From assembly GCA_000002435.2 (NCBI GenBank), contig CM018793.1: a stretch of 64,000 nucleotides of DNA; one strand, given 5' to 3'. Origin of the DNA: Giardia intestinalis (Eukaryota). Positions 8,907 to 49,800 of the stretch are shown here, piece after piece. Within the stretch, counting starts at the first letter, position 1; each line of letters begins with the position of its first letter. A model generated the notes under the pieces. That model was given only the letters and a program-made list of their open reading frames with translations. It did no database searches and had not been told where the DNA came from. The translations under genes and the position numbers were made by a program.

Positions 8907-8913
8907 CTTAGGT

Positions 8914-8920: not shown

Positions 8921-9237
8921 GCGTCATTGTGTGTGGCTTATTACGCTGTGCTACTGGGGCTATCTGAGGATCGCCCAGAGGTCGTGCGGGTAATCATCGC
9001 TCCTTCCTGGCCAGTTCAGAGACGAGGGTTGGCTGTGGATGATATAATAGGGATCTCCCTTCACTTGTATACCAGGAGTCTTTTGCGTCCCTCAGTTGTT
9101 CCGCAGAGGTGTGCTCAGTTCGAGTGTGCACGTCGGTCTGTCTAGGATTCAACTTACTTGCCCATCTGCGTCGTCCACCATTGGTGCCACTTCTTGGTCT
9201 ACCGCTCTGATGGCGGAGGGTCCCAGCAGTTAATGAT

Positions 9238-25818: not shown

Positions 25819-25819
25819 G

Positions 25820-27682: not shown

Positions 27683-27726
27683 AAAGATGATTTTTTATTG
27701 CGTGACTTTCGATAGTCCAAACTACA
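27683..27726. promoter_or_regulatory. 44-bp AT-rich bidirectional promoter spacer between the CPSF73-like gene (-) and the carboxypeptidase gene (+)
   Basis: ataaagatgattttttattgcgtgactttcgatagtccaaactacaATG. Both flanking genes start within 45 bp of each other in divergent orientation. Confidence 0.4.
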
Positions 27727-29691
27727 ATGCAGAATATATCAGCATACAATGAGATCTTGTCGCTATTTGACTCTGGTAATATCGGAAACTACGACATTTC
27801 GGAGGCATGTATGAGTCCCATGAACTCGCGAACACTAACCATTACCTTTTGCTCCAGACCAGATCCCATGCCTCCTGGTGCTGATAACTCACCAGCTGAG
27901 CATAGAAGCTGGTTTAACTTTCTTGTGCATAATCCCTCCGGCCTTGATGTGGATGTTTTGATATTCCAGTGGATAAATGCTCCCTCCCCTAGAAGACAGG
28001 TTAAGACCGGCTATAGACCAGTTTATAGAACTATATCGAGAGCGTACAATTCAGCCATACAGGCCTTAAAGAAGGCTGAGGCGTCTGGGGTCCCCGACTA
28101 CTCTATCGTACTTCCAACACACAATCAACTCCCATTTAGATATACAGAAGCAGAAAGCTTCACAAATAGCATGGGTGCATTCTTAGGATTTAGTATTAGG
28201 GTCCCTCGCGGTACAACGTGTGTACAGATTGCATTCACCTTTCCCTATCCTTTAAACGAGATCTTTCTTCGCATGCGAGAGCTTAGAGCTTTATACCCTG
28301 TTACAGAAGAGCAGTTGAACGATGAGACTATACTGTACCGCATTGCACGTCACCCCGGATTGCCAATATTGTACTTTAGTGCGCGCTGCCATCCAGGCGA
28401 AACTCCAGGAAGCTACGTCTTAGAAGGGATTCTCAAAGACATAAGCAAGCTTCTTAATTGGTTTGAAATTTGGATTGTTCCAGCCATAAATGCAGAGGGA
28501 ATAAGGTGTGGACATTACAGGACTGATGCAGCAGGAAATGATCTTAATAGATGTTATATTGAAAACTCTTCATTGGTTACAGGAAAGATTCTTTCTAAAA
28601 TTAAGACCCAGGGCACGAATACCGGGATATTTCAACCTTCATCTGAACGACTCATTAAGGTCTTCCGCCGCATCTGCCATACGCCTACCTTCAGAAGCTT
28701 TGCGGAGCCCAGACCTCCTTCTGACATAAATGCTGCAATAGAGTCTTCTGACTTAAATACTCGGCAGACGTGCCTTTACCCAATGAGCTGCAATAGCCTC
28801 ACTGGATTGACAGGCTCTGCATCCCAATCAACACCTTCAGATGCTCGTGAGATGGTTAATTTACCTAAGGATTTGTCTAATAGTTATCACACAGAATCAG
28901 TGATCACTCCTGTAGGGTCCCTTCGCCTGTCCGCCACTATCAGATCCCCGCTCTCTATGAGTACTATCTCCCCTGTTTTAATGGAGGCTCCTATTCATAG
29001 TCCCAGAGAAAAGCGGGGTAACACCATACACACCATAGTTATACAGCCTAACCCCCCTGTTGAATATACGACTAAACAGTGCGTAATCTTTTGCCTAGAT
29101 TTGCATGCGCATGCGTCCATTCCAAACTGCTTTCTGTTTGGCAATTCACAGATTGGTGACGCATCACCAGAATTCGATAATATCTTAGATTGCAGCATGG
29201 CAGAGCTGAGATCTCTCCTTTTCCCTGTCATTGTGCAATCATCAATTAAGGGCTTTGACATCATGCGCTCAGACTTTAGTCCATGCTCTATGTACAAGCA
29301 GGACAAGTGTGGCAACAGTTACAAGCACACCATGCGAGTAGGGCTTCATAGCATCACAAAGCTTCCTAACATATATTGCTTCGAAACACATTACTATAGG
29401 CAAGTTAAGGCAAAGAAGACCAGCCGCATTGGTGTCCCGGGTTTCATTGCAATGGGTCAGGGACTTGTGTCTGCCATAGAAGCGTACTTTAGACTCGACC
29501 CTCCAGTCGTTCTCAGTGCTCTACGCAGACTTGAGCTATATGCAAACCGTATCAACGTTGATACCAGGTTTTATGTACTTCTAAAGGAGCTTAAAACAAG
29601 GCTCGGAAAAGATTATTTCTCACGAATATACGAGCTCATCTTCGATCAGTTTGACAACCAGTGCTGTGGCAGTATTCGCCGTAGATTGTGA
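27727..29691 (+). CDS. Cytosolic carboxypeptidase (Nna1/CCP, M14 family; tubulin deglutamylase-like)
   Basis: 654 aa. FTFPYPLNE...SARCHPGETPGSYVLEGIL...WIVPAINAEG...DLNRCY matches the CCP/Nna1 signature (FTYPYTY...SARVHPGE(T/S)...NPDG...DLNRQY), including the HxxE zinc ligands. Confidence 0.8.
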   Translation: MQNISAYNEILSLFDSGNIGNYDISEACMSPMNSRTLTITFCSRPDPMPPGADNSPAEHRSWFNFLVHNPSGLDVDVLIFQWINAPSPRRQVKTGYRPVYRTISRAYNSAIQALKKAEASGVPDYSIVLPTHNQLPFRYTEAESFTNSMGAFLGFSIRVPRGTTCVQIAFTFPYPLNEIFLRMRELRALYPVTEEQLNDETILYRIARHPGLPILYFSARCHPGETPGSYVLEGILKDISKLLNWFEIWIVPAINAEGIRCGHYRTDAAGNDLNRCYIENSSLVTGKILSKIKTQGTNTGIFQPSSERLIKVFRRICHTPTFRSFAEPRPPSDINAAIESSDLNTRQTCLYPMSCNSLTGLTGSASQSTPSDAREMVNLPKDLSNSYHTESVITPVGSLRLSATIRSPLSMSTISPVLMEAPIHSPREKRGNTIHTIVIQPNPPVEYTTKQCVIFCLDLHAHASIPNCFLFGNSQIGDASPEFDNILDCSMAELRSLLFPVIVQSSIKGFDIMRSDFSPCSMYKQDKCGNSYKHTMRVGLHSITKLPNIYCFETHYYRQVKAKKTSRIGVPGFIAMGQGLVSAIEAYFRLDPPVVLSALRRLELYANRINVDTRFYVLLKELKTRLGKDYFSRIYELIFDQFDNQCCGSIRRRL

Positions 29692-29692
29692 T

Positions 29693-32600
29693 CTAGTACC
29701 TCGTTAGAAGGATACATAAGTAGATGTGAGAAATAAGATAAATTAAAAGGCACGCTCCGACCACTGCCATTGTACAAATAATGACTACATCCTCGGCGGC
29801 CTTTTTCGAGAAGAACAAGAGTTTTGTTTTCAAAAATTGAGGGCTGTATCCATACACATCGAGCCCGTATATCAGGTCTATACAATAGCTCTTGATTGGG
29901 TCATTGTATCCCGTCTCCGGTAGCCAAAAAGGGCTTTCAAAGTAATTGTACTCTTCCCACATAGATTTCCGTGGCTTAAAAAACCAATCAAAGTAACTTT
30001 TTATCCGGTATGTTTCCAGAGAGATGTGGTACCAATCCGTTGTTGGCATCTTCTCAACATCTAGATATTTTTCTTTATTGAGGGCTATTCGCTCCCACAA
30101 CAGCTGAGTAGATATGGTTGTTTTGAGATCCAGGCATACTAGTGTAAACAGAGATTCCATCTTCCCCATGGAACAGCTTCCAAGGAGGGTTCCGGGCATG
30201 TCGAGCTGCTTGACCTGAACGTCGTCTATAAATATGGATGGTAGTGAAAGATATAGGAAGATTTCTTCATTGTACCCTTTGCTTTCAACGAAGAATGAAT
30301 TAGTTGCTATGTTCCTTAGATCCTTCTCCCTTATTTCACTGTATACTTTAGATATGTCATCGGTCCATCGTGTATCGATGGAGCATTGTTGTACTCTATT
30401 GAGTTGCCGCTTATACTTCAATTCAGCTAGAGAAAGTACGAGATATTCAAAGTTCTTATTGTCGTAAATGGACAGGACATCGTTATGATAAAGAAGTGAG
30501 CCAATAATACGTAGCTTAGTGTTTTCATCAAGTCGCTTGAGCGTCGGGTAGCCTAAGCTCGATGATGCTATGGAAACTCCATAGTGGTTGATAACCAATG
30601 CTTCCACATCTGCAGTGATACCATCAATGTTGTTGTGGGCATTCGTGATTATCCCATTCACCCGTTCTTCAACCATGTCGACCCTTTCCAATAGAACAAC
30701 CTTAAATATCGACCTGACGCGGTAGAATGGAACGTCAATGTGTATGTTGGAGACACGTGCCAGATAAGAGAAATACTTATTGATTTGTTCCGTTGAATAG
30801 CTGGAAGTTAAAGGTATTGCAGATACGTTACGGCAAAGCTTGCTAGTTAAAATCCCGTACTTGGTCTGTAAGCTAGTCATAAGGTCTGTATACAAGAGAT
30901 CCACGTAGTGAGTAGACAAGTATATTCCCAGTGAGGGATTTAAAAGGACAATGATTTGCGGAGGTGGAAGATAGTACGCGTTGGAGAGAAGAATTTCTAA
31001 CTTATTATCTTTTATAGCTGGCAGATCCATGGTCCACGTTGCCAAAATCTTTTCTAGAATAGAGGCCATTATACGATATGAGTTCCTAGCAAACTCCCAA
31101 TACACCATTGAGAATTCCATAGCACATACCTGCATGAGCGGGAGACTGTCAAGGGTTATTTTGGAACCACAACACGGCACACCTTGAGAACTAGACTCTG
31201 TGTTACCCTCTAGAAATTGAATTAGGTATCGCTGTACTGTTATATCCATGTACCAGCTCTTGCAGATCTGTTTGTGCCGCGTGGAGGGATAGATCATAGC
31301 ATACATGAAGATCTTCTCTGGTCGAGAAACCTTGTCTGGTACAGCAGCTGGGTAAATCTTATCTGCATATGAATAAAAGTCTAAAAGGGGGCAGGCACAT
31401 CGAATGCTTGTAGCCTTGTCTGCCGTTATTGTTGGGAGTGTGATGGCGTCCAAGTATTCATTGGTGACATATGCTCTCAGCCCGAGGACAGGACAAAGTG
31501 TGCTCTTAAAGCTTTCACATGGATCGATTATGTAGGGCGTTGAGGATGGTGTACCACTAATAAGCGTGCCGATCCAAGAAAAGAGAGGTTCTCCATCCAG
31601 AGGAAGAGGGTATGCGTCAGGATCTTTATAGAAAGGGTGCTTCATTGTCTTAGAATCAAATGGGGCCAACAAACCGTGCGTTGACATGGCATACTCTTCA
31701 AGAATTATTACTTTAACTCTAAACAGTGCCCTAGGGTACTCTTCCGCCCTAAATTTTCCGTTATATATTAGAATATCGTACAACCCCACGCGTGTATCTG
31801 GCTCAGCGCAGAGGCGGCCGCGGAGACAGACATACTTAAGATCGTAGTTTTCAAATACTATCATGCTACTTGATTCGCTGTCGCTAAAAATATTTGGTAG
31901 CTTCATGGAAGAGGTACTTAAACCTTTAATCAGTTGAAATGTCCCGTTGTAATTGAACCGATACGTTTCTGTTTGTAAATCTATTAGCTCTTTTAGCCTA
32001 ATCATATCGCTGCGGTAGAAGCCGTACTCTGTGATGTATTCAGAGATTTTCTGGTTCATGTTGCTAAAGTATGAAAGCCTGTCATCGTGCTCTATGGAGA
32101 AGCCTGGCCACACTATTTTATAGTTGTCTATGTTCAAAAGAGTGACCATGTTAGTATTTGAAGAGGTCTCAAGACTCCTAAGGCCAATAACCAAGAACCC
32201 CATAAGGCGCTTGCCGTAGAATGGAAATTCCGCGTAGACTGGTGTGGACATTGCTAGCACAGTTTCATTAGTCATCCAACCTGACTTGACGAGGGCAAGC
32301 TTTATGCTATAGTGTTCTGGCCGTAGAAACTCTGATCCAATAAGGAGTTTGTGCCGATACCGATTAAGCAGAATGTTCCCTTGTGTGTTTGATCCAAATG
32401 GTAAGTCGTAGTCTGGTGCGATAAGAGATGGTGTCACGCAGTTTATAAACTTAGACTTCTCCTCTGGCGGTAACTGGGACTTACAGTTTTCTACAATCTT
32501 ACGGCAACGCTTGGAAACATCTCTGTCTGCTCTCCACGATAGTGTATAGTTAGACTCCTTGATGCATTGATAGAATGTAGAGCTACATCGTTCGGATAAA

Positions 32601-33895
32601 ATCCGGTGTATCGTTATCATATCATCTAAATCAGTAACTTCTTGAAACAACTCTGCAGAGAAGAGCAGGGTTGTAAGATCCATGCACTGGATGTGCCCTC
32701 GCATAAAGTTGGTAAAGTCTGTAAGATGCTTCTTAAGGTTTCTTGCAACTTGCTTACCATATGCATTTTCTGCTAGTACATCAGAAATCATTACAGAGTA
32801 GTATGACAGATTATTGATCGAGCTAATGGCCGGGGTAGCATCTTCAACGATTCCGTAGCCAATATAGACAACTGATGTTGTTTTGTTCTTTATGTCTGTC
32901 CCCACAAAGTCAGTAATAAGTGTAATGAGAGAATGGAGGGATACATAGTATCCTAGGTGTGAGGTTATTGGGTCAAAGTCTTGGATCTTCTTTAGTAGAG
33001 AGTTTAGAGTGGTAACAAGAGGCTCGGAACCTCCATCATTGATGACTTGTATCTCATAAGCTACAAAGGCTATACGTAGATTGACATTTAAGCTTATGGA
33101 GCTGGCATAAATGGAGGCCAAAAGCTTAATTTCGTTAAGCATCTCCACAGAAAGAAGCTCGGACCCGTCTAAGATCATGAGTATAGTATCTGTTTCAAAG
33201 TGTTGCCGTACAGATGAGAGTTGAAGGACATGTTGCTGATAAAGATCTTTTCTATACTGATAATTATCCGAAACGAATGAATTATCAGGACATGGATAGA
33301 TGATAGACATGTCATCTACAAGAGAATGGAAAGCAACAAAATCAGCCGTATTGACCGATTGATAAAGCTCCCTCAATTCGGCATAAAGGTTGTAGTAAGC
33401 GCTGATGTGCTTAGACGTCTCCACATTGGTATTAGTATCAGAAGAGACCAGAGCCACGTTCTGACAAACATCGGTATACTTCTTTTGTAGCTCAGATGGA
33501 ACACTGGTGCTCTCCATATGACAGAGGTTCTTCGGAGTCATTTCAACAAAGTCTTCTGACCGTTGAAGATAGATTCTCTTTTGCCTAGCAGATATTTGTG
33601 CATAGTTGCAGCTCTCTATAAGGTGTGAAACTTTTAGTTGAGCTCTGAGAAGATTGGCTTCAGAGCAATTTAAATTTAGAATATATTGAGTTAGAACGTG
33701 CGCATGAGACGTCTCAACAAGCACAGGAAGAACATCCGAAAGGACCTTGGCTTGGGAGGTCCCAACAATACTCTCCACCAATGTCTTATTGAATATCTTA
33801 TCGCTCATATCTCTTAGAACTTGTGTTTGAAAAAAGACAGCATCTTGATTGGCTGTGGCGTGCATGAGAAGAAACACCGCTGTAAAGAAGAGCAT
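29693..33895 (-). CDS. Large type I membrane protein, hypothetical (signal peptide, ~1340-aa ectodomain, C-terminal TM, 4-residue tail)
   Basis: 1400-aa ORF, ATG at 33893-33895 preceded by an AT-rich initiator. The N-terminus MLFFTAVFLLMHATA is signal-peptide-like. The C-terminus VVIICTMAVVGACLLIYLISHIYLCILLTRY is a TM helix plus a very short tail. No CxxC periodicity and no recognised catalytic motif. Its stop is 1 nt from the carboxypeptidase stop. Confidence 0.6.
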   Translation of the reverse strand: MLFFTAVFLLMHATANQDAVFFQTQVLRDMSDKIFNKTLVESIVGTSQAKVLSDVLPVLVETSHAHVLTQYILNLNCSEANLLRAQLKVSHLIESCNYAQISARQKRIYLQRSEDFVEMTPKNLCHMESTSVPSELQKKYTDVCQNVALVSSDTNTNVETSKHISAYYNLYAELRELYQSVNTADFVAFHSLVDDMSIIYPCPDNSFVSDNYQYRKDLYQQHVLQLSSVRQHFETDTILMILDGSELLSVEMLNEIKLLASIYASSISLNVNLRIAFVAYEIQVINDGGSEPLVTTLNSLLKKIQDFDPITSHLGYYVSLHSLITLITDFVGTDIKNKTTSVVYIGYGIVEDATPAISSINNLSYYSVMISDVLAENAYGKQVARNLKKHLTDFTNFMRGHIQCMDLTTLLFSAELFQEVTDLDDMITIHRILSERCSSTFYQCIKESNYTLSWRADRDVSKRCRKIVENCKSQLPPEEKSKFINCVTPSLIAPDYDLPFGSNTQGNILLNRYRHKLLIGSEFLRPEHYSIKLALVKSGWMTNETVLAMSTPVYAEFPFYGKRLMGFLVIGLRSLETSSNTNMVTLLNIDNYKIVWPGFSIEHDDRLSYFSNMNQKISEYITEYGFYRSDMIRLKELIDLQTETYRFNYNGTFQLIKGLSTSSMKLPNIFSDSESSSMIVFENYDLKYVCLRGRLCAEPDTRVGLYDILIYNGKFRAEEYPRALFRVKVIILEEYAMSTHGLLAPFDSKTMKHPFYKDPDAYPLPLDGEPLFSWIGTLISGTPSSTPYIIDPCESFKSTLCPVLGLRAYVTNEYLDAITLPTITADKATSIRCACPLLDFYSYADKIYPAAVPDKVSRPEKIFMYAMIYPSTRHKQICKSWYMDITVQRYLIQFLEGNTESSSQGVPCCGSKITLDSLPLMQVCAMEFSMVYWEFARNSYRIMASILEKILATWTMDLPAIKDNKLEILLSNAYYLPPPQIIVLLNPSLGIYLSTHYVDLLYTDLMTSLQTKYGILTSKLCRNVSAIPLTSSYSTEQINKYFSYLARVSNIHIDVPFYRVRSIFKVVLLERVDMVEERVNGIITNAHNNIDGITADVEALVINHYGVSIASSSLGYPTLKRLDENTKLRIIGSLLYHNDVLSIYDNKNFEYLVLSLAELKYKRQLNRVQQCSIDTRWTDDISKVYSEIREKDLRNIATNSFFVESKGYNEEIFLYLSLPSIFIDDVQVKQLDMPGTLLGSCSMGKMESLFTLVCLDLKTTISTQLLWERIALNKEKYLDVEKMPTTDWYHISLETYRIKSYFDWFFKPRKSMWEEYNYFESPFWLPETGYNDPIKSYCIDLIYGLDVYGYSPQFLKTKLLFFSKKAAEDVVIICTMAVVGACLLIYLISHIYLCILLTRY

Positions 33896-34646
33896 GCTCC
33901 GAAAGCTATATGATAACTAATGTAAGAAGCAGAAATGCGTTGGGGCTTTTTGAAAATGGCCCTACCCCGTGCCGGCCACGCGGCCTCTAGACCAGCGAGG
34001 CGAGGAGCTTCTTGATTCCTGGGCGCGCGCGGTAGCCATCAGACAGCTCGCGCAGCGGCGGAAACTGGTCCACGAGCTCCGGACACTCTGCGTCCGCATA
34101 ATACAGGACCTCCAGGACCGCGTAGTTCGAGTCGAGCGGTTCGAACGCCAGGCTCCGAAGGCTCAACACGTCTAGTTAGAATCCTGGTTTGTCGGTAGGC
34201 TGCAATGCACTCCGAGCGCGTCATCTCCACCCCCGTAGCCTGACTGCCTTTGGCAATGCTGCTAAATAGCTGGAAGTTCCTTACTTGATGCAAACATGCA
34301 GAGCGAGCGGTTTACATATCGGGAACTCTAGCTACTGGTTGGCTTTACAATGTGAATCACCTGCCCTGTGCATTTACAACTTCGCTTCTAGATTTTATTG
34401 CCAGAGGTTCAACTCCACAGGGCCCTACCTCCGTGTAAACTAGTGCAATGCTTCGTCGGAGAAGGGTACTTCAAGATATGTGCAAATAGATCCAAAGTTG
34501 TGACGTATTGATGTGAATTTGCTGTACACAATCTTGGGAATAACCTAGGTACGCTCTACTTCCAGTTGTAACTGGTTAACTAGCAGAATTCTCTTTACAT
34601 TTATAACATACTGGTAGCACAATCAACCACTCTTTAAAATCACTGT

Positions 34647-37600
34647 ATGCTGATTCTCCTGTATGCTACTGTATTCTTCGCCAGTGCATGCGGGACAGGA
34701 CCTGCATGTGTTAACGGAGACTGCGCCTACGGGGACGGAGCATACTTCTGCCAGTGCAGGCGGGGCTGGGCGGGGGCTGCGTGCGATGCTCCCCGTGCAG
34801 GGTTCTGCAGGGTAACTACTAATACTGGCAAGGCATCCACAGACAGGGCCGTCAACTACGCCTGCCTCGTTAACGAAACCGAATGCACAGGGTCGAGCAA
34901 GTGCACCTACTACGCGGGGGCGTACTCGTGCGACCCCTGTCCCGATGGCTTCGTGTCCTACGAGGGCGAGTGCCTGCCGAGGGGCTGCTTCAACACCGAC
35001 GACTTCTCAAACCAGGAGGCAACGAAGGCCCCCTGCAACGGCCGCGGCCGCTGCCTCCTGAAGGACCCCGGGCTGGCAGGGATGGATGCTGACGACTACG
35101 CGTGCGACTGCTACCCGATCTACCGCGGGAGCCTCTGCCAGTCGTGCGACGACGCCAACGCGATCGCTGCGGGAAGCTCTTCGTCTGATGCCCTCCCTAC
35201 GTGCAATGCGCGGGCCTGCCAGGACTCGGATGGCATCGTGTGCTCAGGCCAGGGAACGTGCATCCTCGACGTGGGCCTCGACCGCGAATCATATCACTAC
35301 CGCTGCAAGTGCAATGCTGGCTACACACGCGTTGGGCACAAGTGCGTCAGGACAGAGTGCGTGGCCACAATCGACGGGTCCCCGGTCGTCTGCGGGGGCT
35401 TCGGGAACTGCACAGATGAGGGCAATACCGGTACCTTCAAGTGCGTTTGCGATTCTAATGCAGTCCCGGTCGGTCAGTTTTGCACATATCCCGCGTGCAC
35501 AGACAGCGCTGCTACTGAGATCTGTGGTGGAGTGGGCGCCTGTGTGCGCAACGGGGCTGGCTATAAGTGCGATTGCCGAGGGCTTGCCACGGGCGACCTC
35601 TGTGATACTTGCACTCCTGGGAAATCCGCTCAGGTAGGCGACAAGTGCGTTCCAGTGGGGTGCCTCACCTCAAACAACCAGGAATCATGCAAGAACGGAG
35701 GAACATGCGTCAAGTCCGATGGCGAGTACCACTGCCGCTGCCCGGACATGCTCATTGCCGTCAGCGGAGAGTGCACGTCCCCCGCATGCATGGACGAGGA
35801 GCTGGGGAAGGTCTGCTCGGGACACGGTACGTGCAAGACGGACGATCTACGAAATATACAATGCACTTGTGGTCAGGACTATACTTATATCGCCCCGGGG
35901 CGCTGCATCCTAACAGCCTTGATGGACGGCGACCGAATCTGCAGCGGCCACGGCCACGTTAGCATCGACACCTCGGATCCTCCCACGATGACCTGCAGGT
36001 GCTCGTCGATCTACGAGGGGTCCAAGTGCGAGACCTGCAAGGCCTCTGTCGCCCAGGAGATCGAGGGCGAGTGCGTCCCAACCAAGTGCATTGTGGCACC
36101 CCAGCCCGGATCGCGAGCCACCACTCCCAGGGTCTGCGACGACCACGGCCAATACACGAAGTTCGGCGACCCGAGCGACCCGTTTGCCACGTGCACCCCC
36201 AAGGACCCCGACTCCGGGACCGTCTCCGCCTACAATGGCACCTTCCTTGCGAGGCCCGGGTGCGTGCATGTCAGCAAGGTAGACAGGACCAGGAGGTTTT
36301 ACTGCGGATTCCTGCAGGGACTGACAGACAACTTGCAGGAAGGCGTGGTAACGTGCAATACACAGAACGAGGGATCTGTGTCTGTTGAGACGTGCAATGG
36401 TTGCCCAGAGGGCTTTAAGCTTGTCCACTTCGGGGCAGAAGAGGGCTATAGAAAGACATGTATGCACGACAACTGCTACCACGGAACTGGCGCCAGCAGG
36501 ATGTGGTACGACTACTGCGGCGGGACCGGCGACTGCATCAAAGAGGGTGACACGTACAGGTGCGACTGCGGCCCCAGTGCCACTTGGAACGAGGGCCTGA
36601 AGGCGTGCGTCACCGAGGCGTGCAAGCTTGATAAAAAGCTCGCCGGCCCAGGGGCGCCCGAGTACTGCGCAGCGCCATCTAGCCTTACGCTCCACTGCAC
36701 CGTCGGCCGGGACGCGGCCTGGCAGTGCGATTGCCCCCAGGGCGACTACCTCACGTACAACAGGACGTGCATCCTGAGGAGCAAGAGCGCCAGCCCCACG
36801 ACTCATCGAGCAAGGGGGCTTTGCGGCGGCCCCGGGGCGGGCTTCCTGAGCGGCAGCGGGTCCTGCGTCTGCAACCCGGGCTTCCTCAAGATCGACGACA
36901 TGTGCTACAGCTATAACTGCTTGCCAGTTGGCGTGACATCTTCGGCTAGTCTGAAAGTTGATTCTCATGTCTGCTCCGGGAAAGGAATCTGCACGTACAA
37001 CCAGCTGACTGGTCGGTACGGCTGCGAGTGCGAAAGTGGCCTGGAGGCCTTCGGGGGTTACTGCACGCGTCCTGAATGTGTTGGGATAGTGATACATAAT
37101 GGAGAAATCAGGCACGTCGAGTGCAAGGTCTACGACGGGTCCGTGGGCAGCTGTACGCTAGACGCAAATACGAACACATATGCCTGTAGGTGTGGCGTCG
37201 GATACAAGGTTGCGTATGGCATTTGTGTCCACAGAGGGTGCATGCCGGACACCGTCTATTGCGGAGGAGACGCATTGGCTTCGTGTGTGAGAGGAGATGA
37301 TAGTCGCTACAGCTGCATCTGCTCTGAAGGCTACGAGCTGAGCGAGGAGCGAAACGAGCACGGGAACAAGGCCAAGTGTGTCCCAAGCAAATGCATGTAT
37401 AAAGCGTCCACAAGCAGCGCCGCTACCGAATGCAATGGCTTAGGGGCATGTAGCGGTGACGAGGTGCCTTTGTTAAAAAATAAGGAGTGCAGATGCATCG
37501 ATGGTGCAACCGAATATATGCTTAGAGACGCAAGCGGCGAGATGAAGAAAACATGCATGCTAGAAAAGTGCATCTCTCGTATGGATGGAGAGGTGCCAGT

Positions 37601-38012
37601 GATCTGTGGAGGCTCGGGTAGATGTGGACCTGGGGGGTGTATATGCGATCTGGGAACTGAGTTGGTTGGAAATACCTGTGTTGGTCTCAATTGCTTCATT
37701 AATACTAAGGATGCTGATGGACGAGTGACCAAATCGATATGTGGCGGTGACACGATTGGTGTGTGCACAAAGATAGCGTCGCACGGCGATCGTCGAGACT
37801 ACGCTTGTAAGTGCAAGGACCCGAGGCCTGACGGGTATGAAGAACTTGATGGGTTCTGTCTGCCAAAAGCTTGCATATTTGAAATCACAACCTTGACTAA
37901 TCAGCAGGTGAGGACGATGTGCGGTGGAAAGCAGTTTGGAACATGCGTTCTTAATGCTACTCAATCATCCAAGTCATACTGTAAGTGCATAAATCGATAT
38001 GACATTATTTAA
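34647..38012 (+). CDS. High-cysteine protein (HCMP family), N-terminal segment with signal peptide; terminates at an in-frame TAA
   Basis: 1121 aa. Signal peptide MLILLYATVFFASA, then dense CxxC/CxC/EGF-like modules (GYKCDC, GEYHCRC, CGGxGxC). No TM segment before the stop at 38010-38012. Same reading frame as 38031..39701. Confidence 0.75.
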   Translation: MLILLYATVFFASACGTGPACVNGDCAYGDGAYFCQCRRGWAGAACDAPRAGFCRVTTNTGKASTDRAVNYACLVNETECTGSSKCTYYAGAYSCDPCPDGFVSYEGECLPRGCFNTDDFSNQEATKAPCNGRGRCLLKDPGLAGMDADDYACDCYPIYRGSLCQSCDDANAIAAGSSSSDALPTCNARACQDSDGIVCSGQGTCILDVGLDRESYHYRCKCNAGYTRVGHKCVRTECVATIDGSPVVCGGFGNCTDEGNTGTFKCVCDSNAVPVGQFCTYPACTDSAATEICGGVGACVRNGAGYKCDCRGLATGDLCDTCTPGKSAQVGDKCVPVGCLTSNNQESCKNGGTCVKSDGEYHCRCPDMLIAVSGECTSPACMDEELGKVCSGHGTCKTDDLRNIQCTCGQDYTYIAPGRCILTALMDGDRICSGHGHVSIDTSDPPTMTCRCSSIYEGSKCETCKASVAQEIEGECVPTKCIVAPQPGSRATTPRVCDDHGQYTKFGDPSDPFATCTPKDPDSGTVSAYNGTFLARPGCVHVSKVDRTRRFYCGFLQGLTDNLQEGVVTCNTQNEGSVSVETCNGCPEGFKLVHFGAEEGYRKTCMHDNCYHGTGASRMWYDYCGGTGDCIKEGDTYRCDCGPSATWNEGLKACVTEACKLDKKLAGPGAPEYCAAPSSLTLHCTVGRDAAWQCDCPQGDYLTYNRTCILRSKSASPTTHRARGLCGGPGAGFLSGSGSCVCNPGFLKIDDMCYSYNCLPVGVTSSASLKVDSHVCSGKGICTYNQLTGRYGCECESGLEAFGGYCTRPECVGIVIHNGEIRHVECKVYDGSVGSCTLDANTNTYACRCGVGYKVAYGICVHRGCMPDTVYCGGDALASCVRGDDSRYSCICSEGYELSEERNEHGNKAKCVPSKCMYKASTSSAATECNGLGACSGDEVPLLKNKECRCIDGATEYMLRDASGEMKKTCMLEKCISRMDGEVPVICGGSGRCGPGGCICDLGTELVGNTCVGLNCFINTKDADGRVTKSICGGDTIGVCTKIASHGDRRDYACKCKDPRPDGYEELDGFCLPKACIFEITTLTNQQVRTMCGGKQFGTCVLNATQSSKSYCKCINRYDII

Positions 38013-38030
38013 ATAACAAATGGAAAGTGT

Positions 38031-39701
38031 ATGAAGAAAACCTGTCTTAGCGACTCTCTTTCTGGAGGTCCGGAGGGATACGTTGAATGTTCTGGGCATG
38101 GGAAGTGTATAGGGGATCATATTGTGGGGTACTCGTGCAATTGTGACGAAAATTATCAAACGGTTGCAGACGATCGCCGTTATTTGTGCGTACCGGCTGT
38201 CTGTGTTGTATCAGAGACAAATTCCAGTACTATATGCAACGGAAGAGGGACCTGTCAGTTCAAGACAGACCCAGGAAAGTGCGAGTGTAGGCCTGGGTAT
38301 GATGGTACCAAATGTGAGACGTGTGCAAATGGCTACAAGGAACACACAAATGCGCAATGCTACCTCAATGGCTGTCCGGCAGACAATTGTGGCACGGAGG
38401 AAAATACTAGCGTAGGAGCTTGCCAACTTAGCGGAAACAGTTTTGCTTGCGTCTGCGTCAACTCGAGCTTCGTCGTTGACAGTGCTAGCAAGAAGTGCCG
38501 AAAATCCAGATGCGTTTGGACGGATCCATACGATCAGACAGAAAAAACGTGCTACGGCATGGGTACGTGCAATGATAACGGCGAGGACACTGGGGCGTGT
38601 GTTTGCAACCCCGGGACAACCCTAGTCGGGACAAACATCTGTGTTTATAGCCAGTGCATCTCGGATGAGAACGGCTCTAAAACAGTGTGTAAGGGGCGCG
38701 GAGTATGCATCGCGAGCCTTGTGGCTGGCCAGGGAATGTGCCAGTGCAGTGATCAGTATCGCACAGACAAGAAGACCGGCCAGTGCTTTGTCAAGGAGTG
38801 CTTCGGGGCGCATGCAAGCATCTCTGCAGAGGTATGCGACGGTGGTGGAACGTGTAATGAAAATACTAAGAAGTGCGATTGTAATTCTGGTTTCCAAAAT
38901 CTTCCTGGCCAGAATGGCTGCGTGCACAGCAATTGTATTTCGTCGGACCAGAAGCTCTGCAGCGGCTTCGGCGCCTGCGAGAATAACAATGGCAATTACA
39001 TGTGTCTGTGTGCTAACTATTACACCCTGGTTGGAAGGGACTGCATCCCCACAAGGTGTCTCAAGGACGGGAAAGTCTGCAACGGCGGCGGCACGTGCTC
39101 CGGCGAGGGATTCTCTGCTACCTGCAGCTGCAGCCAGGGCTGGACCCTCCACGGGACCCTCTGCTACCCATCGGCCTGCGTTTCCGGCGGGACACTCTGC
39201 GGGGGGAATGGCAACTGTCCACTTTCCACAGATAGTACATGCGAGTGCAAGTATGGGTATGAAAGTGTTCTTGACCAGCTCTGCATCAGCAGCCAGTGCG
39301 TCCAGCGCGGCACCGACGGCACCGTGACGATCTGCGGGGGCAACGGCAGGTGCGTGTCTGAGAACGGCGTAAAGCCCACTTGCATATGCGATGAAGGCTT
39401 CTCTCTCACAAGCGACTTCGTCTGCGGAGTCCCTGCTCCATCTAACAAATCCTCGGGTGGCACGACGGCTGCGATCGTGGTCGTCGTCCTCCTCGTCCTT
39501 GCTGCGGTGGCCGGCTTCCTTGTCTGGTGGTTCGTGATACGGCCCAGGAGAGGCGGCCCACTGAGGGAGCGCGCCCCGCAGAAAGGCTCCAAGTCTTCCA
39601 GGTCCAAGCTCAAGCGGCAAGCAACTTCTAACGCATCACTCCACGCTGACGTGCCCCTGCTGAGTCAGCTGTCTGGTGCCAACTCCAGCATCCAGCTCTA
39701 G
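38031..39701 (+). CDS. High-cysteine membrane protein (HCMP), C-terminal segment: Cys-rich ectodomain, TM helix, basic cytoplasmic tail
   Basis: 556 aa in the same frame as 34647..38012, 6 codons after its TAA. It starts MKKTCLSDS, with no signal peptide of its own, and has CxxC/CxC modules throughout. The C-terminus reads TAAIVVVVLLVLAAVAGFLVWWFVIRPRRGGPLRERAPQKGSKSSRSKLKRQ..., a TM helix plus charged tail as in HCMPs. It lacks CRGKA, so it is not a VSP. Confidence 0.75.
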   Translation: MKKTCLSDSLSGGPEGYVECSGHGKCIGDHIVGYSCNCDENYQTVADDRRYLCVPAVCVVSETNSSTICNGRGTCQFKTDPGKCECRPGYDGTKCETCANGYKEHTNAQCYLNGCPADNCGTEENTSVGACQLSGNSFACVCVNSSFVVDSASKKCRKSRCVWTDPYDQTEKTCYGMGTCNDNGEDTGACVCNPGTTLVGTNICVYSQCISDENGSKTVCKGRGVCIASLVAGQGMCQCSDQYRTDKKTGQCFVKECFGAHASISAEVCDGGGTCNENTKKCDCNSGFQNLPGQNGCVHSNCISSDQKLCSGFGACENNNGNYMCLCANYYTLVGRDCIPTRCLKDGKVCNGGGTCSGEGFSATCSCSQGWTLHGTLCYPSACVSGGTLCGGNGNCPLSTDSTCECKYGYESVLDQLCISSQCVQRGTDGTVTICGGNGRCVSENGVKPTCICDEGFSLTSDFVCGVPAPSNKSSGGTTAAIVVVVLLVLAAVAGFLVWWFVIRPRRGGPLRERAPQKGSKSSRSKLKRQATSNASLHADVPLLSQLSGANSSIQL

Positions 39702-40024
39702 CCCGCTGCCCGCAAGGTGTCGGTATTGGTAAGTCGACGGCGCGGATCTGCATACGAATGTAAATTGAAACGTAAGAGACGGGCCGGTTAGTGCTTAGAA
39801 CTGTCGGCGTGTTTTGCACGCTTGTCTGGGAACGGGATCGAGAGCGACTACTATAGTCCAGATGCAAGGTATAGGCGGAGGCCTTACTGCAGTACCTGCT
39901 CCCTGTCCTCAGGCAGAGGGACTCCTCGGACCAAGCCCTCCGCCACGTGGTCGTCGCATCCTATGTGTGCGCCTCTGTGCTCCTGTACGAGGGGCTCGTC
40001 CTGGGGAGGCTGCACTATATCGCA

Positions 40025-40773
40025 AACGAGTGTGCGGGCGGACGGGCGTTCCTGGTGCCTCAGACGACACCCTTCAGAGAGGTGGCCCTGGACCGACGCC
40101 TCGACAGACCGAAGCATCACCCCCAAGTGTGTTGTGCAGATGGACCAGCCCACACGTCACTGAGCCAGACACACTGCACAGAATGAGCGTCGACATGATC
40201 TCGTACTGGCTGACGGACCATCCACAAGAGCGCACTGCGATCATGAGCAGAGGGATGGGCCTCTCCCCTGATACCACCGCATGGGAGTACTCCATCGGCA
40301 TCCACGAACGCGTACTATGACTCCAGGATAGAGGCGCACGGGGAGCGCACCCCCGACAGCAGGGTCGATGGTCCACGTCATGGGGAGACGAAGAGGCACC
40401 CCGAGGAACGGGGTAGACACCCGGGGTCATAGCGTATCCCATCTTCGTCATGGAGCACCAGGGCCCGGGCCACGTGGAGACCAGATCGCCGCAACAGACG
40501 CAAGACCCTGAATAGCAGGTGCCCACCAGTGCCAGACGATAGTTGACTCCGATGGGCCAGAGGAAGGGAGGAACCCTAGAGGTAACGTGAGGAGCAGCGG
40601 CTTCCGGGGGAGCTGGGGCATAGGAGTTCTCCCGCCCGGATCGAGGGCGCCTGATCTTCGGACGCTGGGGCTGGACCCCGGACGGCGAGCGGGAGCCCTG
40701 CCCAGGGCGGTGGCGTTGCAGGGAGATTTACTCGGACAGCAGCTGCAAACTAACCTTGGTAAACAGAGTAAAT
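40025..40773 (-). repeat. Dispersed ~0.7 kb GC-rich repeat, copy C
   Basis: 40087-40773 is near-identical to 9238-9922. 40025-40086 additionally shows ~70% similarity to the reverse complement of 1690-1745, a region copy B lacks. It ends 28 bp upstream of the dynein ATG at 40801 and begins ~320 bp after the HCMP stop. Confidence 0.75.
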
Positions 40774-40800
40774 GAAGCAACTTTAAGAAAAACTCCATTC

Positions 40801-43800
40801 ATGCAAATGCATCAAGCCCGTCACCCCCCGGCAATTCTCCCTGACATAGCGTGCGTTTCTGACCAAGCGCCCATAGGTGTGTCTTCACAGGCCGCCTACA
40901 ATACTGATTCTATGAACGTCGATATTCCTACTTCATTACAGCCAGGGAAACAGCTCCACATTGCTAAGCACAACAGTGTTCTCCACGCTAATATTGCTTT
41001 AATTACAATGATGCTCCAGGAAGCTGGCGCCAGTCCGGAGTTTATTCAGGAGCTGACAAGGTTGAAGCTTCCCCACGCTCGCAGAGAGCCATTTATCGAA
41101 ACCCACATAGATGGAGCTATGACTTCTATTTCCTCTATACTTCCACGACCCAGTGTTTTCGGATATAGCCTTGAGTTCTATGATAAATACGATGACCTTC
41201 TGCAGTTGTCTAATAGGGTTCTCAGTGGAGAAATCTTACATGCTACTATGTATAAGCGCGACATCAGCTCTGATAGTTCACACATCGATTTATCCAATTA
41301 CGCCGTCTATGAGGACTACTCTTTATTTCTAAAGCACTTAGAAACCACTTATGCTATTGAAAATGTCTGTGTTATTGGTTTTAATGAGTCTGAACGGAAG
41401 TTTCTTGTGGCACCAGAAAGTATTTTTGGTGATGGTTCAAATCCGCCTTCAGGAGAGACATTAAGAGGGTCAAGCTATTTGTGCGCTCGCCTTATGCTAA
41501 AGTTTTCTACTACTGACCATCCTTTAGACAGAGATTCTATCTTTTTTAAGCGACTTTTTGAGGCTCATAGGCTCAAGGCGACCGTCGAGCGCTCTTATAT
41601 TTTGCACACGTTTATTACTGCTCTTATTAAGTCTATCCAATACATCGACTCGTTCAGCAGGGGCGAGCTTGGCAGATCGATTACGAACATTCCTCTCTTA
41701 CCAATTATTAAGGCACTAAGATTGAGCCCTGCTCTTATTGCACGTACGGGTTGCGAGGTACAAATAATTCGTGGGATATCCCCTGGCCCAGAGTTTTTTG
41801 AAGATCTTCTCATTAAGTATTTTGCCAAGAACGTAACCATTCAGCAAATCCTAAAGAATAATGTCTTTTACCCGCTTTTAGACTCTCTTCTCACAGATGC
41901 AGAGGTGGACTACAAGCGTGTGCATATCCTTAATTCACTTGGACGCTGCCGTCTTCAAAATGCAGACCTCGACAGGTTTCTTCTAAAGTATGGTATTGAT
42001 AGGCAACTAACAGACTGCGAGTACTTTTTGAAATGTTACAATCATAAGCATGTGTATCCAGTTCTTCAACATAGTACTTCTCGCGGAGGCGTCATTAATA
42101 TGCGAACTGTGCTTGTTGGAACTTTCCCAATCACTGAGCGACAGGTTCATTATAGTGAGAACCAGTCAGCCCATCAGGAGCTCGCATTTAATAGCACCTC
42201 GGATACCCAAGCAACATTAGAGTCTATTGCTTGCCATAAGGAAGCATTTATGAAGGCACGTCTTCATCTAGAAAAACATCACTACTTTTACTCTACCTCT
42301 CTACAAGGTGCCATGTTTCGTTTCAGACTAGATTGTACAGATTTTTTTGGGAGCAATCTCGTGCTGTTTCATCCAATTGTCTTAGGAAGCTCAGCTTGCG
42401 ACTTTGTACGGCATGTCCTCGCATCTGGTGCCCTTGATTCGACGCAGAAGAGCTCTTTTTACTCAAAGATTCTAGACATTTCCGTATCCGACAAGCACTG
42501 CTTACGTAAACAAGACCATGAGATTGCGGATCTCTACCAAAACTTTCTTGAGGAACAGAAGACATTTCACGAAGATCTTCAAGCTACACATTCTCAAGAA
42601 CATGTCAATTTTCGCCGCTTTGGAGATGGAATCCTGTATTCCGATGGGCGTTACGAGTACTATGTGGGAAGACAGCGTATTTTACTGCCTGAAAGTATAA
42701 CTAGTGGCGATTATGTCAGTTGTATTAGAAACATTGCTGAGCATCAGCAGGCTATTTTTCGTCAGCGGGGAGAGAATGTCCTGTCAATTTCTCTCATACA
42801 TAGCGCCACTGATATAGATACCCATATTTACCGAGGCGAGAGCTTCAGTTTCTTTAGGGGCTGGAAGAGCCAATGTCTCTTTGACTCCTTGAATTCTTTT
42901 GTCACTACTATCTATGAAACCATCGACGCAATTTTTCTGCCCCGACTAGCACAGTATCTTTTTCCATTAATGGCTCTCCAGGAAGTAGAGCGTCGTCATG
43001 CCTCCAGAATCTGTGATGAAATTTTTACACAGGCCTTAACAGAAACAATCGATCACACATATGATTTGTTTCTTGAAGCATTAAAAGATAAGCGAAGAAC
43101 ACCTGACTTGAGCTTCATGAATCCAGATGGGTTTATAAACATAAGCTTAACGCAGCAGAAGCAGCAAGGGGGGTGTGGTAACACTTTGCAGCATGCCAAC
43201 GTTCCCCCAGCAGATACCTTACCTAATACTTATATGGATTCCTCTATTGCGACTAGCAAGCTACAAGCATCAATGCCACCCATACAGCTCAGTGACCTTG
43301 AAGTTGTGGGCAAGGATATTATTATTAGGAAGGGAAATAGAGCCTTTCTAGACCCACGAAATAACACGCTGACGCGGCTAGTTAAGGCTATTTTGTTTGA
43401 AATAGAAAAGCTGGCTAACAGAGGAATGAGTTTGTTGGAATATGGCGTTTTTAACTATGAGAATTGGCCCAAAGATGCACTACTCAAGTCATCTACCCCA
43501 ACGTTCCTTTACAACTCTAAGGAGAAGATCAAAGAGCTTATTCTCAATATGATTCACCTGGGTTTGCACAGCGCCGGTACGCTCCCGAAGTATTTGCTCG
43601 AAGTTCCTGTCACTTATCCCATGGATTCGGTCCCCTTGGTTGAAGTTGTTGTTCAGTTAGCTGTCAACCCTGTATCTTCTGACTACTCCGAGTCTATAGG
43701 GCTTTATGCATGTGCTTATGAGGAGACATCTAAAGCTGTTTCCAAATGGTATCAGCAAAACCTCTATCAGTTGGACCTCCTCTTTGAGCAAGTGGCTATC

Positions 43801-46800
43801 AGCTCATTTTTAAAAGAAAGCGAGATAGAAGATCAGCAGCAAGCATCTCCTACCGAGCTCCCAGAGAAGTACACTGTCTTAGAATGCTATAAGGATAAGT
43901 ACACAACAACAGGATATGGCACTAATAGATACCTCCGCAACGATACTGCCTTCCAAGTTTTCGAAAAGAATCCAGAGCCAGACCACAGTCGTACTGATCT
44001 TTCTGTAACATCAGTGACCCAAACAACCTGTCCCAGCGACAATCTTCAGAGCACAATGGCTGAACTGTTAGAAGAGACCATTATCACTGCTAATGATTGC
44101 TTTGTATCGGTTACTGATAGCACGCTACCACACTTTACTTTGGAGCCATCAAAATCAGAATTTATGACCAAGCTTTCTGGACTATTCGACTGTTACGATA
44201 CTTTTGCTTCGCAGTTTGTGTCATTCTATGATAGCATTTCTGTAGATCCAGAAAGGAAGCGCCTAAAACCGCCAGAGTATGCATATGGGTTTAGATATGT
44301 CAAAGAGAAGCGCCACACATGTCTCGACTATACAGAATATTGCTACCAACTGGCCGAAGTTGTTCTAGAGATTTGCAACATAATTTGCTCCGCTATCTTC
44401 AATCGAACGTTGGATGCTAAATTGAAAATGTGGGCAGACATCATCTCCAATGCCATGGACCTTCCCTACTATAACCTGTATCACTCCACAAGCGAAACCA
44501 GCATTGAAGACTTTGACTATGTTCCGTTGCGACCTGTGGGCGTCACATCTTCTTCATCTAATGTTGTGGATAAGAAGGATCATCAATTTGAGGAAGTTGA
44601 CCTTGATATTATCCGAGAAATAACAAGTCCTCTTCAGATCCAAGAGCTTTCGCGAAAGGTGCGTAAAGGTCAGATAGATGTCACAGATAATTTCTTGCAT
44701 AAAATCAAAGCATACTATTATACATCAGAGTATTGGGCAACAGTGAAAAGCACCTTTGATGATAGAATGAGCATCAATGCGTTTCTGAGTCTTGTTGGAA
44801 AAAAATCTGAGGCAACCATGAAAAGAACGGAAGTGCAGGAGCTTATTTCTACCGAGGTTGTTAAAGCTATTATTTATTACCGCAGCATGCAGATACTGGT
44901 CCAAGAGCATCTTTTCCCAGATACTATACGTTACGGATTTATTTGTATCACAACGACGCCAGCTAAGCAGGCAATGGAGCACCGTATTAGTGCAATCCTA
45001 TGTGCATTAGGATCGATTGTAACTGCTCGTGCATGGACACTAATAGAGTATAGCAATAAGATTCTTCAAGCAATACAGATTCAATGTTCGTATACCCCAT
45101 CTGTACCAGTAGAGTGGTATATGCTTAGAAGGTTTGTTAAGTTCTACATAAAGCCGCTTCAGCACTTGATACATGATTTGAACAACGAGGCAGTATCGTA
45201 CTTGAATAACATTCTTACTGTGCTACCTCTAAAGGAGCTTGCCCATATTAAGCCACAGTTTGATCTCAGAATTCATTTAGAAGACCCAGAAAACTGGGCA
45301 GCGGTCATTAAGCGACTGTCTGATCCCGCAGCTGGGGTGCCAGATGAATCAAGGTATGAGTCAGACGTTATCTCCATGGCTAGGACAACACAGTTTTCAT
45401 GGATATTTAATAGGTTTATTGGGCTACGCATGCACACAGATGCGATCTATCATCCATACAAACTGGCGTCTCATCTTTATTCTAGTAGGTCGCCCTTTGG
45501 TCTGAATAAGCTAATTACACAGTCTCTTATTCCATCTACTGAGGGAATCATATCCCAGAGCAAGTACGATCTTCTTATGAACTTGGAGGCGCATCGTGAG
45601 GATCTTACCAAAAGACAGAGTGATCTCCTTGAGCGAGTCGAGGCATTCAGCAAACGAATCCCCGCTCACTTCAATTTTAATGAGGCGAGCCAAGACGTTA
45701 GCTACAAATTCTTTAAGGACGGAGAGGCCCTGCAAGCTGAGCTAGCAAATCTACAACAAGAATCATTGAACTTTATTAATGACGAAATTAGCCTAGAACT
45801 GGCTCCAGGCACATTTCCAGTTATTGATTTGCTCCAGCCCCGCATAGATATGATCCACAGATTCTGGACAATAACGTATGAGCATTGCACAATTCTTCCA
45901 GTTTGGTTTGACTGCCTTCTCTCTGACCTCGCAGCCAAGTATTCTGGAAGACTAAACGAGTTCAAAGAAACAGTTTTTAACAAATATGTCCAGGTTGCAG
46001 ATGTTTTAAGTCTCATTCAAACTGCAGCCCGCAAGGAAAAGTCTAAGACCATGCTTGCAAGCTTAGCAAATGGTGAGAAAATACTTCTAAAGGTGCAGTC
46101 CCACTTAGCGTGGTTTAAACACTACTCCCCTGTCATCGTCGCCCTTTTATCACCGGCACTAAAACGTCGCCACCTAGACCAACTGCGAACGAAAGGAATC
46201 TTTCTAAATCTAGCAGAGCATACTGTTTCCAAATTAGTAGAGCGCAAAGTCTTTCTGGATCTCTCAGAACCTAGCATTCAAGATAAGGGCTTTTCACACA
46301 GAGCAAAACTTATTCTAGAAGTCATAGAACACGCGCAAAAAGAGCACGATATTGAGCTTTCGTTTGGAAAGATTGAAGCAATCTGGAAGACAGTTTCTTT
46401 TGAATTTAAAGTTTTGTCAGGAGATCGCTACAAAAGCTACTCAGCACTTTATTCCACACACAGAGCAGATGTACACAATGTGCCGGCCGTGCATCCACTT
46501 TCGATTGCAAAGGCCAAGGTTCTGGATGAACATGGCCGCGAGCTTTGCCTGAACTTATCCACCAGTGGCTCTAATGACCGTGTACATTCCCAGTTAGACC
46601 TCGAAAAGCGCCCTTATGTGATATCAAATCTGGGATTTATCTTACAATTATATCAAGATCATTTTCTCTTGACCAACAAGCTTTTGCAATCACAACACGT
46701 CACCCCAATGCAACGCGTGATCCAACAGTTTACTGAGAAGCAGCTTATCGTCAAGGAAATCCTTCTATTGATACAGGACATTCAGGATAGCTGGCTTCGA

Positions 46801-49800
46801 CTGTATCCCATCTACGTTGGCAAGTACACGGAGTTCTTTGGCCACAGAGCCACTGAGTTTATCAATCTTACAATCTGCATGCAAACAGTGTTTTTAGGGT
46901 TTATCAATAATTGCAACGTGCAAGGCAATATAACGATCGCCGGGAATCTCAACCAAGTAGATAAGCAAATCGAATTGGGGTTAAGGGATGGCACAATAAA
47001 GTTTTCAGAGGTGCCGCCCAATCAGCTCCTGACGCCTCTTCTTTTTTACTACAAGGCGTTTCTGGATCACTTGAATGCGCGTATGTACTCTCTTGTGGAC
47101 ACTAAGCGCCAAGGATTTTTTAGGTTCACTTTTATGAATACTAATGAAATTGTCAAAATACTCTCTGCTTTACCTGGAAGCGCAGACGCTGTCCTTACTC
47201 CGCTTCTTCATCTATACAGCCTTTCTGACTATTCAATAGAGAAACACAACGAACAGCTTTTACTAACTACTGTTTTCTCAAAAAGTGGTGAGACCATCCG
47301 ACTAGCGGACCCTGTAGATGTCACAAAAGAAGTAGATGTGTGGCTGACCACCTTTGATGATGTGTTCCGCAAAACTATGCGCAAGCTCTTTTATGACCTG
47401 TATGTCGATGTTTTTGTTGATAAGATGGAGCCCAGTGTGGCCTTTCTCAAGTACCCTTCCTGTACCGTTGGGCTGTTTCTTAGGGTCGAGTTCACGCATC
47501 AAATGGACGCGATCTTTGCACAAACAGTTTCGGAGCTAGACACACATCATATGATACTAAGCCTCCTCGATGACATCAACCATAGAATCGTCTTTTTCAA
47601 GCAGCAATTTCTCGCCTGTTCTAACAAGCTCCTCTATAACAACATTCTTGTTGAATTGATGTACTTCAGTAATATCGTCTCAACTATATGCAAGCATCCT
47701 TTGGCTAGGGATAAGAGATTTATCTATTACAGAATCTATAAGTATCGTATTGTTCCCCTCGCTGATGATGCAATTAGTCTTTTGACCAAGACGCTGAGCG
47801 CACTAGGTGATAGCTCTATCAACTCACTCGGCAGTACGTCTCCAGATCAGGATCTGCTTCTCTCTACCAAGGTCATTCACAGAGATATGAATCCATCAGA
47901 CTTTGATGTCCAGATTTCGTGCCTTGGAAACTCCATGCTTTACCGATTCGACTATATTCCGCCCACCACTAGATCGATAGTGACAGAACCAGTTGACCAA
48001 GCAGCTACGTTTATCTTTTCGGCATTTGCTTCGCGATCTGTTGGGGGTTATATCAAGGGAGAGACTGGGAAGACTGAGGCTGTCAAGCACATCGCCTATT
48101 GCCTCGGCTACAAGCCATATATTATCAATCCGACGTATACTGTCCATTTTTCTGAGACTACACTTCACCATATGATGCTCACAGCATGCGCTTTCGGCCT
48201 TTTGATATGCTTTGAGGATGTAGAGAAATTCACAAGTTCGTTGCTAATTACGCTCTCGCGAAATTTGGGTCAGGTATATGGCATTCTTAATTCGTATACA
48301 TCAATTCAAACACTGGCAAACTGTGCTTCCTTACTCCATGACAGCAGTAACCACATGAAGATAGCATTGCCGGCGGAGAATCCAGTCGGTGAAGTGTTCT
48401 TGCATCCTTCTGCGATCTTCTTCCTGACAACCAACACACCGCTTCCACATAGTTTCAATAGGGTTGTTAAACCCTTTAAGTGTCATCTCACAGAGTCTGC
48501 AATCTATCACATAATCCGAACATACATGGATATCGCAGGCCTTACAGAAATTGAATCCGTAACATCACAACTCATGCACATCATGGGAGCTATTAAGCGT
48601 CTTTTTGCCCCATTTTTCGGCCTTAGACATATCAAAGACATTATCAGCGAGATGCTTCTTCTCTCTCAATATACAGGAAGACCCATCAAGAAGGCATTCG
48701 CTGAGCAACCTGCTGCATCTCATTCTGATAATAGTAATGTCACCAATGAAAGGGCCAACACAGGACGTGCAGAACCTACTCTGGAACAGCGAGAACCTAT
48801 CATCAGTGCATCCAAGTTAGTCAACTTAGCAATCAGAACAGTAGTCAGTCCTCTTTTAGCACCAGCTCATCGTGTGCCTTTTTATAACATGCTTGATGCA
48901 GAGTTTGGGGCGATAGCCCTCCCACCCATTACTGAGACGCTGCTGGATGCCGTGAGAGAGATATACATGGACCCGGCATTTTGTCAATCCGTTTATAGAG
49001 AGACAGGCTTAGTTTGTCCTTGCAGTGATCTGGATATTTATGCACAGTCTATCCTTTATACCAACAGTTCTGTCTATCAGGCAGCTCAGACAGAGTTTAT
49101 AACAGACATTAAGTCCTTCATAGAAGTTATAGACCACAATTACGGAACAGTTGTGGTTGGAAACCATCTTTCCGGCAAGACGAGCTTTATCACAATCTGT
49201 TCACAAGTATACGCAAAGCTTTGCGACTATGTTGTTAACTTGCGATTTATTAACTTTTCAAGCATATCTTATCATGAGTTTTTTGGATACTATTCTTTTA
49301 GTGACTGGATTGATGGGATTATTGCTCGCCTTGTTTCTCGTGCGGAGCTGCACGGTTCAAACGAAGTGTCATGGATTATTTGTGACGGTGTGGGAAAGAT
49401 GGATCACCTGGGAAGTATATTGAATGGCACGATGTTCCTACCAAACGGCGAAATTTTACGTTTACCGTCGAACATGAAGTTCATTTTTGAAGTGACCAAT
49501 CTTATGCTGGTTCCAGAAATATTTAGTGCTAAATGCGGATTGTACCAACTGGGAAGACATGACTACACCGAAGGTTACTTACGAAAGCTCGCTTACTCGC
49601 CCATAGTGACAGGCGAGTCAACCTTGAACCCTCTTGAGATGCGTTTGCATGCTGCCTTGCAAGAATCACTTGGGGAGATACCGCGTCCCCGTGGAATTAC
49701 CCTTTATACAGAGGAATCGCTGGATGGCAGCGAAGAGTTCGATTCCTCTCTTAAGCCCTGTGCATCCGAAATTATACTTACTCGGCTTCGTCAGCTGGTG

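Follow-up and report, generated by a model that had tools for sequence, protein, structure and literature searches.

The window analysed here is a 64,000-nucleotide (nt) stretch of Giardia intestinalis DNA (contig CM018793.1 of GenBank assembly GCA_000002435.2), and its source is Giardia lamblia WB (ATCC 50803), both halves of the gene described below being 100% identical to 2007 WB RefSeq proteins. The gene belongs to the high-cysteine membrane protein (HCMP) family and lies at 34647..39701 on the plus strand, where translation gives a single frame of 1685 codons (5055 nt) that ends in TAG and is interrupted by one in-frame TAA. This TAA, at 38010-38012 (plus strand), is codon 1122 of 1685 and the sole internal stop of the frame. 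It separates two open reading frames (ORFs) that share the frame, 34647..38012 (1121 amino acids, aa) and 38031..39701 (556 aa), between which there are only the TAA itself and six sense codons (ITNGKC) before the ATG at 38031; the original prediction had described the same arrangement, and the translation agrees with it. We conclude that the WB copy is very probably a recent nonsense pseudogene, produced by a single C-to-T transition that turned CAA (Gln) into TAA.

The upstream half (34647..38012, plus strand) consists of a putative signal peptide and a cysteine-rich, EGF-like ectodomain. Its N-terminus (MLILLYATVFFASACG... / MLILLYATVFFASACGTGPACVNG) is identical to that of the paralogue GL50803_00113213, and the signal peptide is assigned by this identity; the paralogue is scored SP = Y in Table S1 of a recent preprint, where agreement of at least two among Phobius, SignalP, and TOPCONS was required (bioRxiv 10.1101/2022.03.07.483299). 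The downstream half (38031..39701, plus strand) carries EGF-like repeats, a predicted transmembrane helix (residues ~1607-1630, counted in the fused frame), and, after it, ~60 aa of cytoplasmic tail (RPRRGG...SSIQL) of the non-CRGKA type. The sole strongly hydrophobic 19-residue window of the frame starts at aa 1601 (AAIVVVVLLVLAAVAGFLVWWFVI), within the downstream half, which thus has the single C-terminal helix typical of the family, and the earlier claim that the upstream half lacks a membrane anchor while the downstream half has helix and tail is borne out. Cysteine makes up 11.15% of the upstream half and 11.15% of the downstream half, in keeping with the family level of at least ~10%, and the fused frame contains 28 CxC and 6 CxxC motifs. 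According to Pfam, the EGF-like repeats expected for the family are present downstream of the stop (EGF_2, E = 1.2e-17; EGF, EGF_Teneurin, and EGF_laminin), and EGF scores above its cutoff in the upstream half as well.

Family members of ~1670-1690 aa can be aligned with both halves over their full length, and for this reason the split frame is not a chance arrangement; the fusion is a canonical family member and each half is incomplete, as had been proposed. A further argument of the original prediction, that the motif EMKKTCMLEKC recurs upstream, stands in part: MKKTC occurs twice (aa 966 and aa 1129, 163 codons apart), but the full EMKKTCMLEKC is found only once. The TAA at codon 1122 deprives the locus of the uninterrupted frame that marks a functional family member; the locus thus belongs with the family's pseudogenes, not with its functional members.

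Homologues and gene-conversion tracts around the stop

Family members were gathered by cluster look-ups and a second search, and the comparison set comprised 20 full-length or partial members from WB, DH (AII), GS_B (B), and P15 (E), the complete ones being ~1670-1690 aa long. All 20 read through the stop position, where the alignment column contains Q in 13 sequences, K in 5, R in 1, and T in 1, with no other stop. Of the 21 sequences, the window copy alone thus has the stop, and the clear homology to intact genes together with a disabling change that none of them shares is what characterises a non-processed pseudogene of the nonsense type; RefSeq marks the locus as 'pseudo'. In no isolate did the corresponding position hold two separate genes with a second signal peptide, the arrangement that the original prediction had named as its refutation. 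Its view that this is one gene and not a gene boundary is upheld by the DH orthologue and 19 other members that read through, and by the RefSeq entry for one 5055-nt pseudogene.

Positional orthology could be assigned for DH only, in which contig AHGT01000057 runs collinear with 24.7 kb of the window (24667..49287; 96.2% identity). Because of this collinearity DHA2_153156 (ESU36092.1) is the positional orthologue; it shares the flanking genes and 88% protein identity with the window gene, but has AAG (Lys) at the stop site and a different local sequence, and therefore lacks the conversion tract of WB described below. DHA2_153156 is annotated as a protein of 1557 aa plus a 128-aa ORF, the break lying at ~14,560 of the DH contig (window position 39203). 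This split is due to a 1-nt deletion in a run of six G (GGGGGG in WB, GGGGG in DH), more likely an error of 454 sequencing at the homopolymer than a genuine frameshift.

At the stop site CAA is found in the DH paralogue DHA2_153045 and in a GS_B copy (L004) that has no flanks in common with the window. Another GS_B candidate, GSB_151940 (contig AHHH01000211), was rejected as the orthologue, being a frameshifted, truncated family copy with no flanks in common; this copy (6321-9174 of its contig) is frameshifted between two called genes, and its homology ends ~30 codons before the WB stop position. The WB paralogues have the same architecture and length as the window gene, 75-80% overall identity to it, and long identical patches; they differ from it in having Gln at the stop position and an uninterrupted frame. 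On WB chromosome 5, outside the window, another family member is apparently split by a frameshift: GL50803_00113268 (420 aa) ends out of frame (...CRCPDMLLPSTESARPPRAW...), and the neighbouring accession KAE8305957.1 corresponds to the C-terminal 1238 aa, starting shortly downstream of the frameshift.

The DH and GS_B copies were compared with the WB gene as DNA, and the comparison within WB was made at the protein level. In sliding windows, most of the WB gene reaches 95-99% identity with its syntenic DH counterpart, and five tracts are nearer to a non-syntenic DH paralogue (~35370-35820, 36850-37070, 37815-38184, 39070-39300, and 39519-39659). The stop lies in the third of these. Within it, the 272 nt at 37869..38140 (plus strand), which we regard as the gene-conversion tract around the stop, are identical to DHA2_153045 except for base 38010 (T in WB, C in the paralogue), and only ~76-79% identical to the syntenic DH copy. 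In WB, the window protein equals KAE8306013 and KAE8305957 over aa 1064-1234 and KAE8305808 over aa 1078-1234, in each case save for Q in place of the stop; over ~aa 451-750 it is 100% identical to KAE8304611. At 37,400-37,700, by contrast, identity to paralogues is only 53-67%, and around aa 1235-1600 there are places at which the window protein is unlike every one of the paralogues. Judged by these identities, the WB gene is a mosaic, pieced together by gene conversion from several paralogues. With the T at 38010 standing for the C of an ancestral CAA (Gln) in an otherwise identical tract, a recent nonsense mutation is the best supported of the options that had been listed for the interruption. 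As to the order of events, conversion among the WB paralogues would have come first and the private CAA>TAA transition after it, or possibly both occurred together.

Annotation history of the locus

The proteins of the locus were identified by a protein search with the junction region. In the 2007 annotation the halves were called as two genes. The downstream ORF is XP_001706685.1 (GL50803_114161, 'High cysteine protein'; 100% identity), which starts with MKKTC, and the last 516 aa of the upstream ORF are XP_001706686.1 (GL50803_103983; 100% identity), which ends with ...RYDII. The latter model is shortened: it begins at MHDNCYHG and omits the earlier part of the 1121-aa ORF, which suggests that an older assembly or annotation had another break farther upstream. 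Both accessions are present in an older proteome set only and are missing from current NCBI sources; the 1121-aa product has no entry in the protein collection searched, and the ID 103983 was not found in the supplements of two HCMP papers. The 2007 models can now be read with confidence as two halves of one disabled gene.

A search of the preprint supplements for the N-terminal peptide located the present entry. Supplementary Table S7 lists a 5055-nt pseudogene on NC_051860.1 with the label 'ORF N, inner stop Y' (bioRxiv 10.1101/2022.03.07.483299), and the 399 nt of sequence given in that table agree letter for letter with the window, starting at 34647. Current RefSeq has GL50803_00114161 as 'pseudo', with an inner stop and 5055 nt that correspond exactly to the span 34647..39701. 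This entry and the window gene are the same locus; length, the 399 nt, and the inner-stop flag agree, and there is no difference between them. The WB reannotation comprises 306 pseudogenes (PMC7000408). The reference annotation of WB therefore already records this locus as a pseudogene; the present analysis adds that the lesion is a single CAA>TAA change, that Gln is its ancestral state, and that the stop lies inside a gene-conversion tract.

Alternative explanations of the stop

Giardia has two diploid nuclei, and the stop could accordingly be allele-specific, with T in only some of the four genome copies and the intact protein made from the other alleles. Such a state would be a sub-case of a real mutation, and we consider it unlikely. 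The presence of four genome copies makes it conceivable, and the mutation looks very young, perhaps not yet homogenised; reads also show more allelic variation near VSP gene regions (WB reannotation, PMC7000408). Nevertheless, two assemblies from different data both have a stop here, and mis-mapped reads from the identical paralogous tracts, of which there are at least three, would be expected to push the consensus to C and not to T. Overall heterozygosity of WB is, moreover, very low, reportedly less than 0.01% in the 2007 genome paper.

It is far less probable that there are two real genes here, with the downstream ORF expressed alone from the ATG at 38031 as in the 2007 annotation, where it was recorded as a gene that has since been cited as such. 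Transcription in Giardia can begin at short AT-rich elements. Through the C>T change TTATTCAAATAA has become TTATTTAAATAA at 38003-38014, 17-28 nt upstream of the ATG at 38031, and TTATTTAAATAA resembles the AT-rich TTTAAAAT element located 8-15 nt upstream of the true ATG of the gene at 34647; that the mutation thereby created a start element for the downstream ORF is speculation. Against a second gene stands the fact that every homologue is continuous across the stop position. The downstream ORF also has no signal peptide, so its 470-aa cysteine-rich ectodomain could not enter the secretory pathway, and both protein models were withdrawn by the 2020 curators.

A sequencing or consensus error, with C as the true base and an intact gene, was among the options of the original prediction and is now hard to credit. 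The tract is nearly identical at no fewer than three other WB loci, and repeats are error-prone in assembly; elsewhere in the gene, the DH orthologue has the probable artefact mentioned above (the 1-nt loss in the G6 run). However, the internal stop is carried by the 2007 Sanger-based models, XP_001706686 ending with RYDII and XP_001706685 starting with MKKTC, and by the 2020 PacBio-based annotation alike. The change at 38010 is a substitution outside the homopolymer runs that cause indel errors, and contamination by paralogues would favour C.

The weakest explanation, and a very unlikely one, is that a full-length protein is made by programmed readthrough, or by a genetic code of the hexamitid type in which TAA means Gln. 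Reassignment of TAA and TAG to Gln has occurred in other diplomonads, and Gln-tRNA is capable of misreading UAA; at this locus the stop does replace a Gln codon, and the downstream frame is intact with a low ratio of nonsynonymous to synonymous substitution rates (dN/dS). The stop is nonetheless private to one of 21 sequences and not conserved, and a single base distinguishes its tract from otherwise identical paralogous ones, which leaves no room for a readthrough signal to have evolved in the surrounding sequence. Known leaky stop contexts are UGA-C and UAG-CAR-YYA, and the context here is TAA-A (TAA-ATA-ACA); we know of no Giardia-specific readthrough rules. No downstream RNA structure was predicted, the 120 nt at 38010-38129 folding no better than shuffled sequence (z = +0.56). 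A hexamitid code is also at odds with the neighbouring genes, in which TAA does serve to end translation: it closes 4 of the window's 13 other large ORFs, in two cases as TAA-A. Finally, the locus is curated as a pseudogene.

Loss of the gene and its consequences

The age of the nonsense mutation was considered from the tracts that have not been converted, in comparison with the DH orthologue. The dN/dS ratio is 0.155 upstream of the stop (587 codons) and 0.143 downstream of it (217 codons, 11 substitutions), and the frame contains one disabling change in 1685 codons. Since dN/dS is equally low on both sides of the stop, the mutation appears to be young; the lack of decay after the stop fits a very recent event, although the test is of low power.

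Several points weigh against a recent nonsense pseudogene. Equal dN/dS would fit continued translation of the downstream part as well, and the clean downstream sequence, with its 11 substitutions only, could also be explained by gene conversion from intact paralogues. A consensus error common to both assemblies, or a T in only some of the four genome copies, is formally compatible with the same sequences. The IDs GL50803_103983 and GL50803_114161 were not found in the supplements of two proteomics papers, which is weak evidence and does not establish the absence of a protein.

Transcript data add the following. In published stranded RNA-seq from seven WB clone libraries, the sense signal of the pseudogene is low, at 2.0-4.5 transcripts per million (TPM) for unique mappers. 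The antisense signal is 41-92 TPM, far above the sense signal, but each strand was normalised on its own, and the ratio of the two cannot be taken as absolute. Two long minus-strand ORFs lie inside the gene, at 35910..37115 (401 aa) and 38622..39620 (332 aa). The polyadenylation signal AGTRAA is absent from the 400 nt after the internal stop, and likewise after the terminal stop, and is thus uninformative. The mosaic structure makes the placement of short reads in the stop region unreliable. In Logan assemblies neither ORF product is on record; the neighbouring 1400-aa gene was found in 126 blocks, and the contigs (L005, L006) end at the edge of the HCMP gene.

If the locus is, as we conclude, a recent nonsense pseudogene, the following course of events may be proposed. 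Members of the family are type I membrane proteins of ~1685 aa, in which a signal peptide and an EGF-like ectodomain rich in cysteine are followed by a single transmembrane helix and a cytoplasmic tail. In the WB copy one C-to-T transition would have replaced the CAA glutamine codon with TAA at codon 1122. Ribosomes would stop there and yield at most a secreted ectodomain fragment of 1121 aa without an anchor; the 556 codons downstream lack a signal peptide, and a correctly targeted protein is probably not made from them. The mutation would be young and would lie in sequence that gene conversion had recently brought in from a sister paralogue; its youth fits an otherwise intact frame and the absence of any visible relaxation of constraint downstream of the stop.

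Similar lesions are known in this genome. Truncations of WB cysteine-rich genes by single nonsense changes have been described, and most of the former 'HCP' genes have been argued to be pseudogenes (bioRxiv 10.1101/2022.03.07.483299). In two WB genes, GL50803_00114617 and GL50803_00114470, a single-base change to a stop is likewise followed by recognisable coding sequence; there the stop falls where the transmembrane domain ends and derives from Trp, whereas in the window gene it falls in the middle of the ectodomain and derives from Gln.

There is a slim chance that the disabled copy is not inert, acting as a donor or acceptor in the conversion network and perhaps having its TAA read at a low level as Gln by a near-cognate tRNA. 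The network includes at least three intact WB paralogues with identical patches of ~170-300 codons. By analogy, a role as donor or acceptor would resemble that of the VSP pseudogene arrays proposed for G. muris, and if TAA were read as Gln, the exact ancestral protein would be restored.

Papers that cite the halves as separate cysteine-rich or EGF-repeat proteins (e.g., PMC2867935) should be read with the split gene in mind. For the family as a whole, the identity patterns indicate that gene conversion is ongoing among the HCMP paralogues with EGF-like repeats, and the mosaic at this locus illustrates clearly, on a small scale, how surface-protein paralogues of Giardia evolve in concert.

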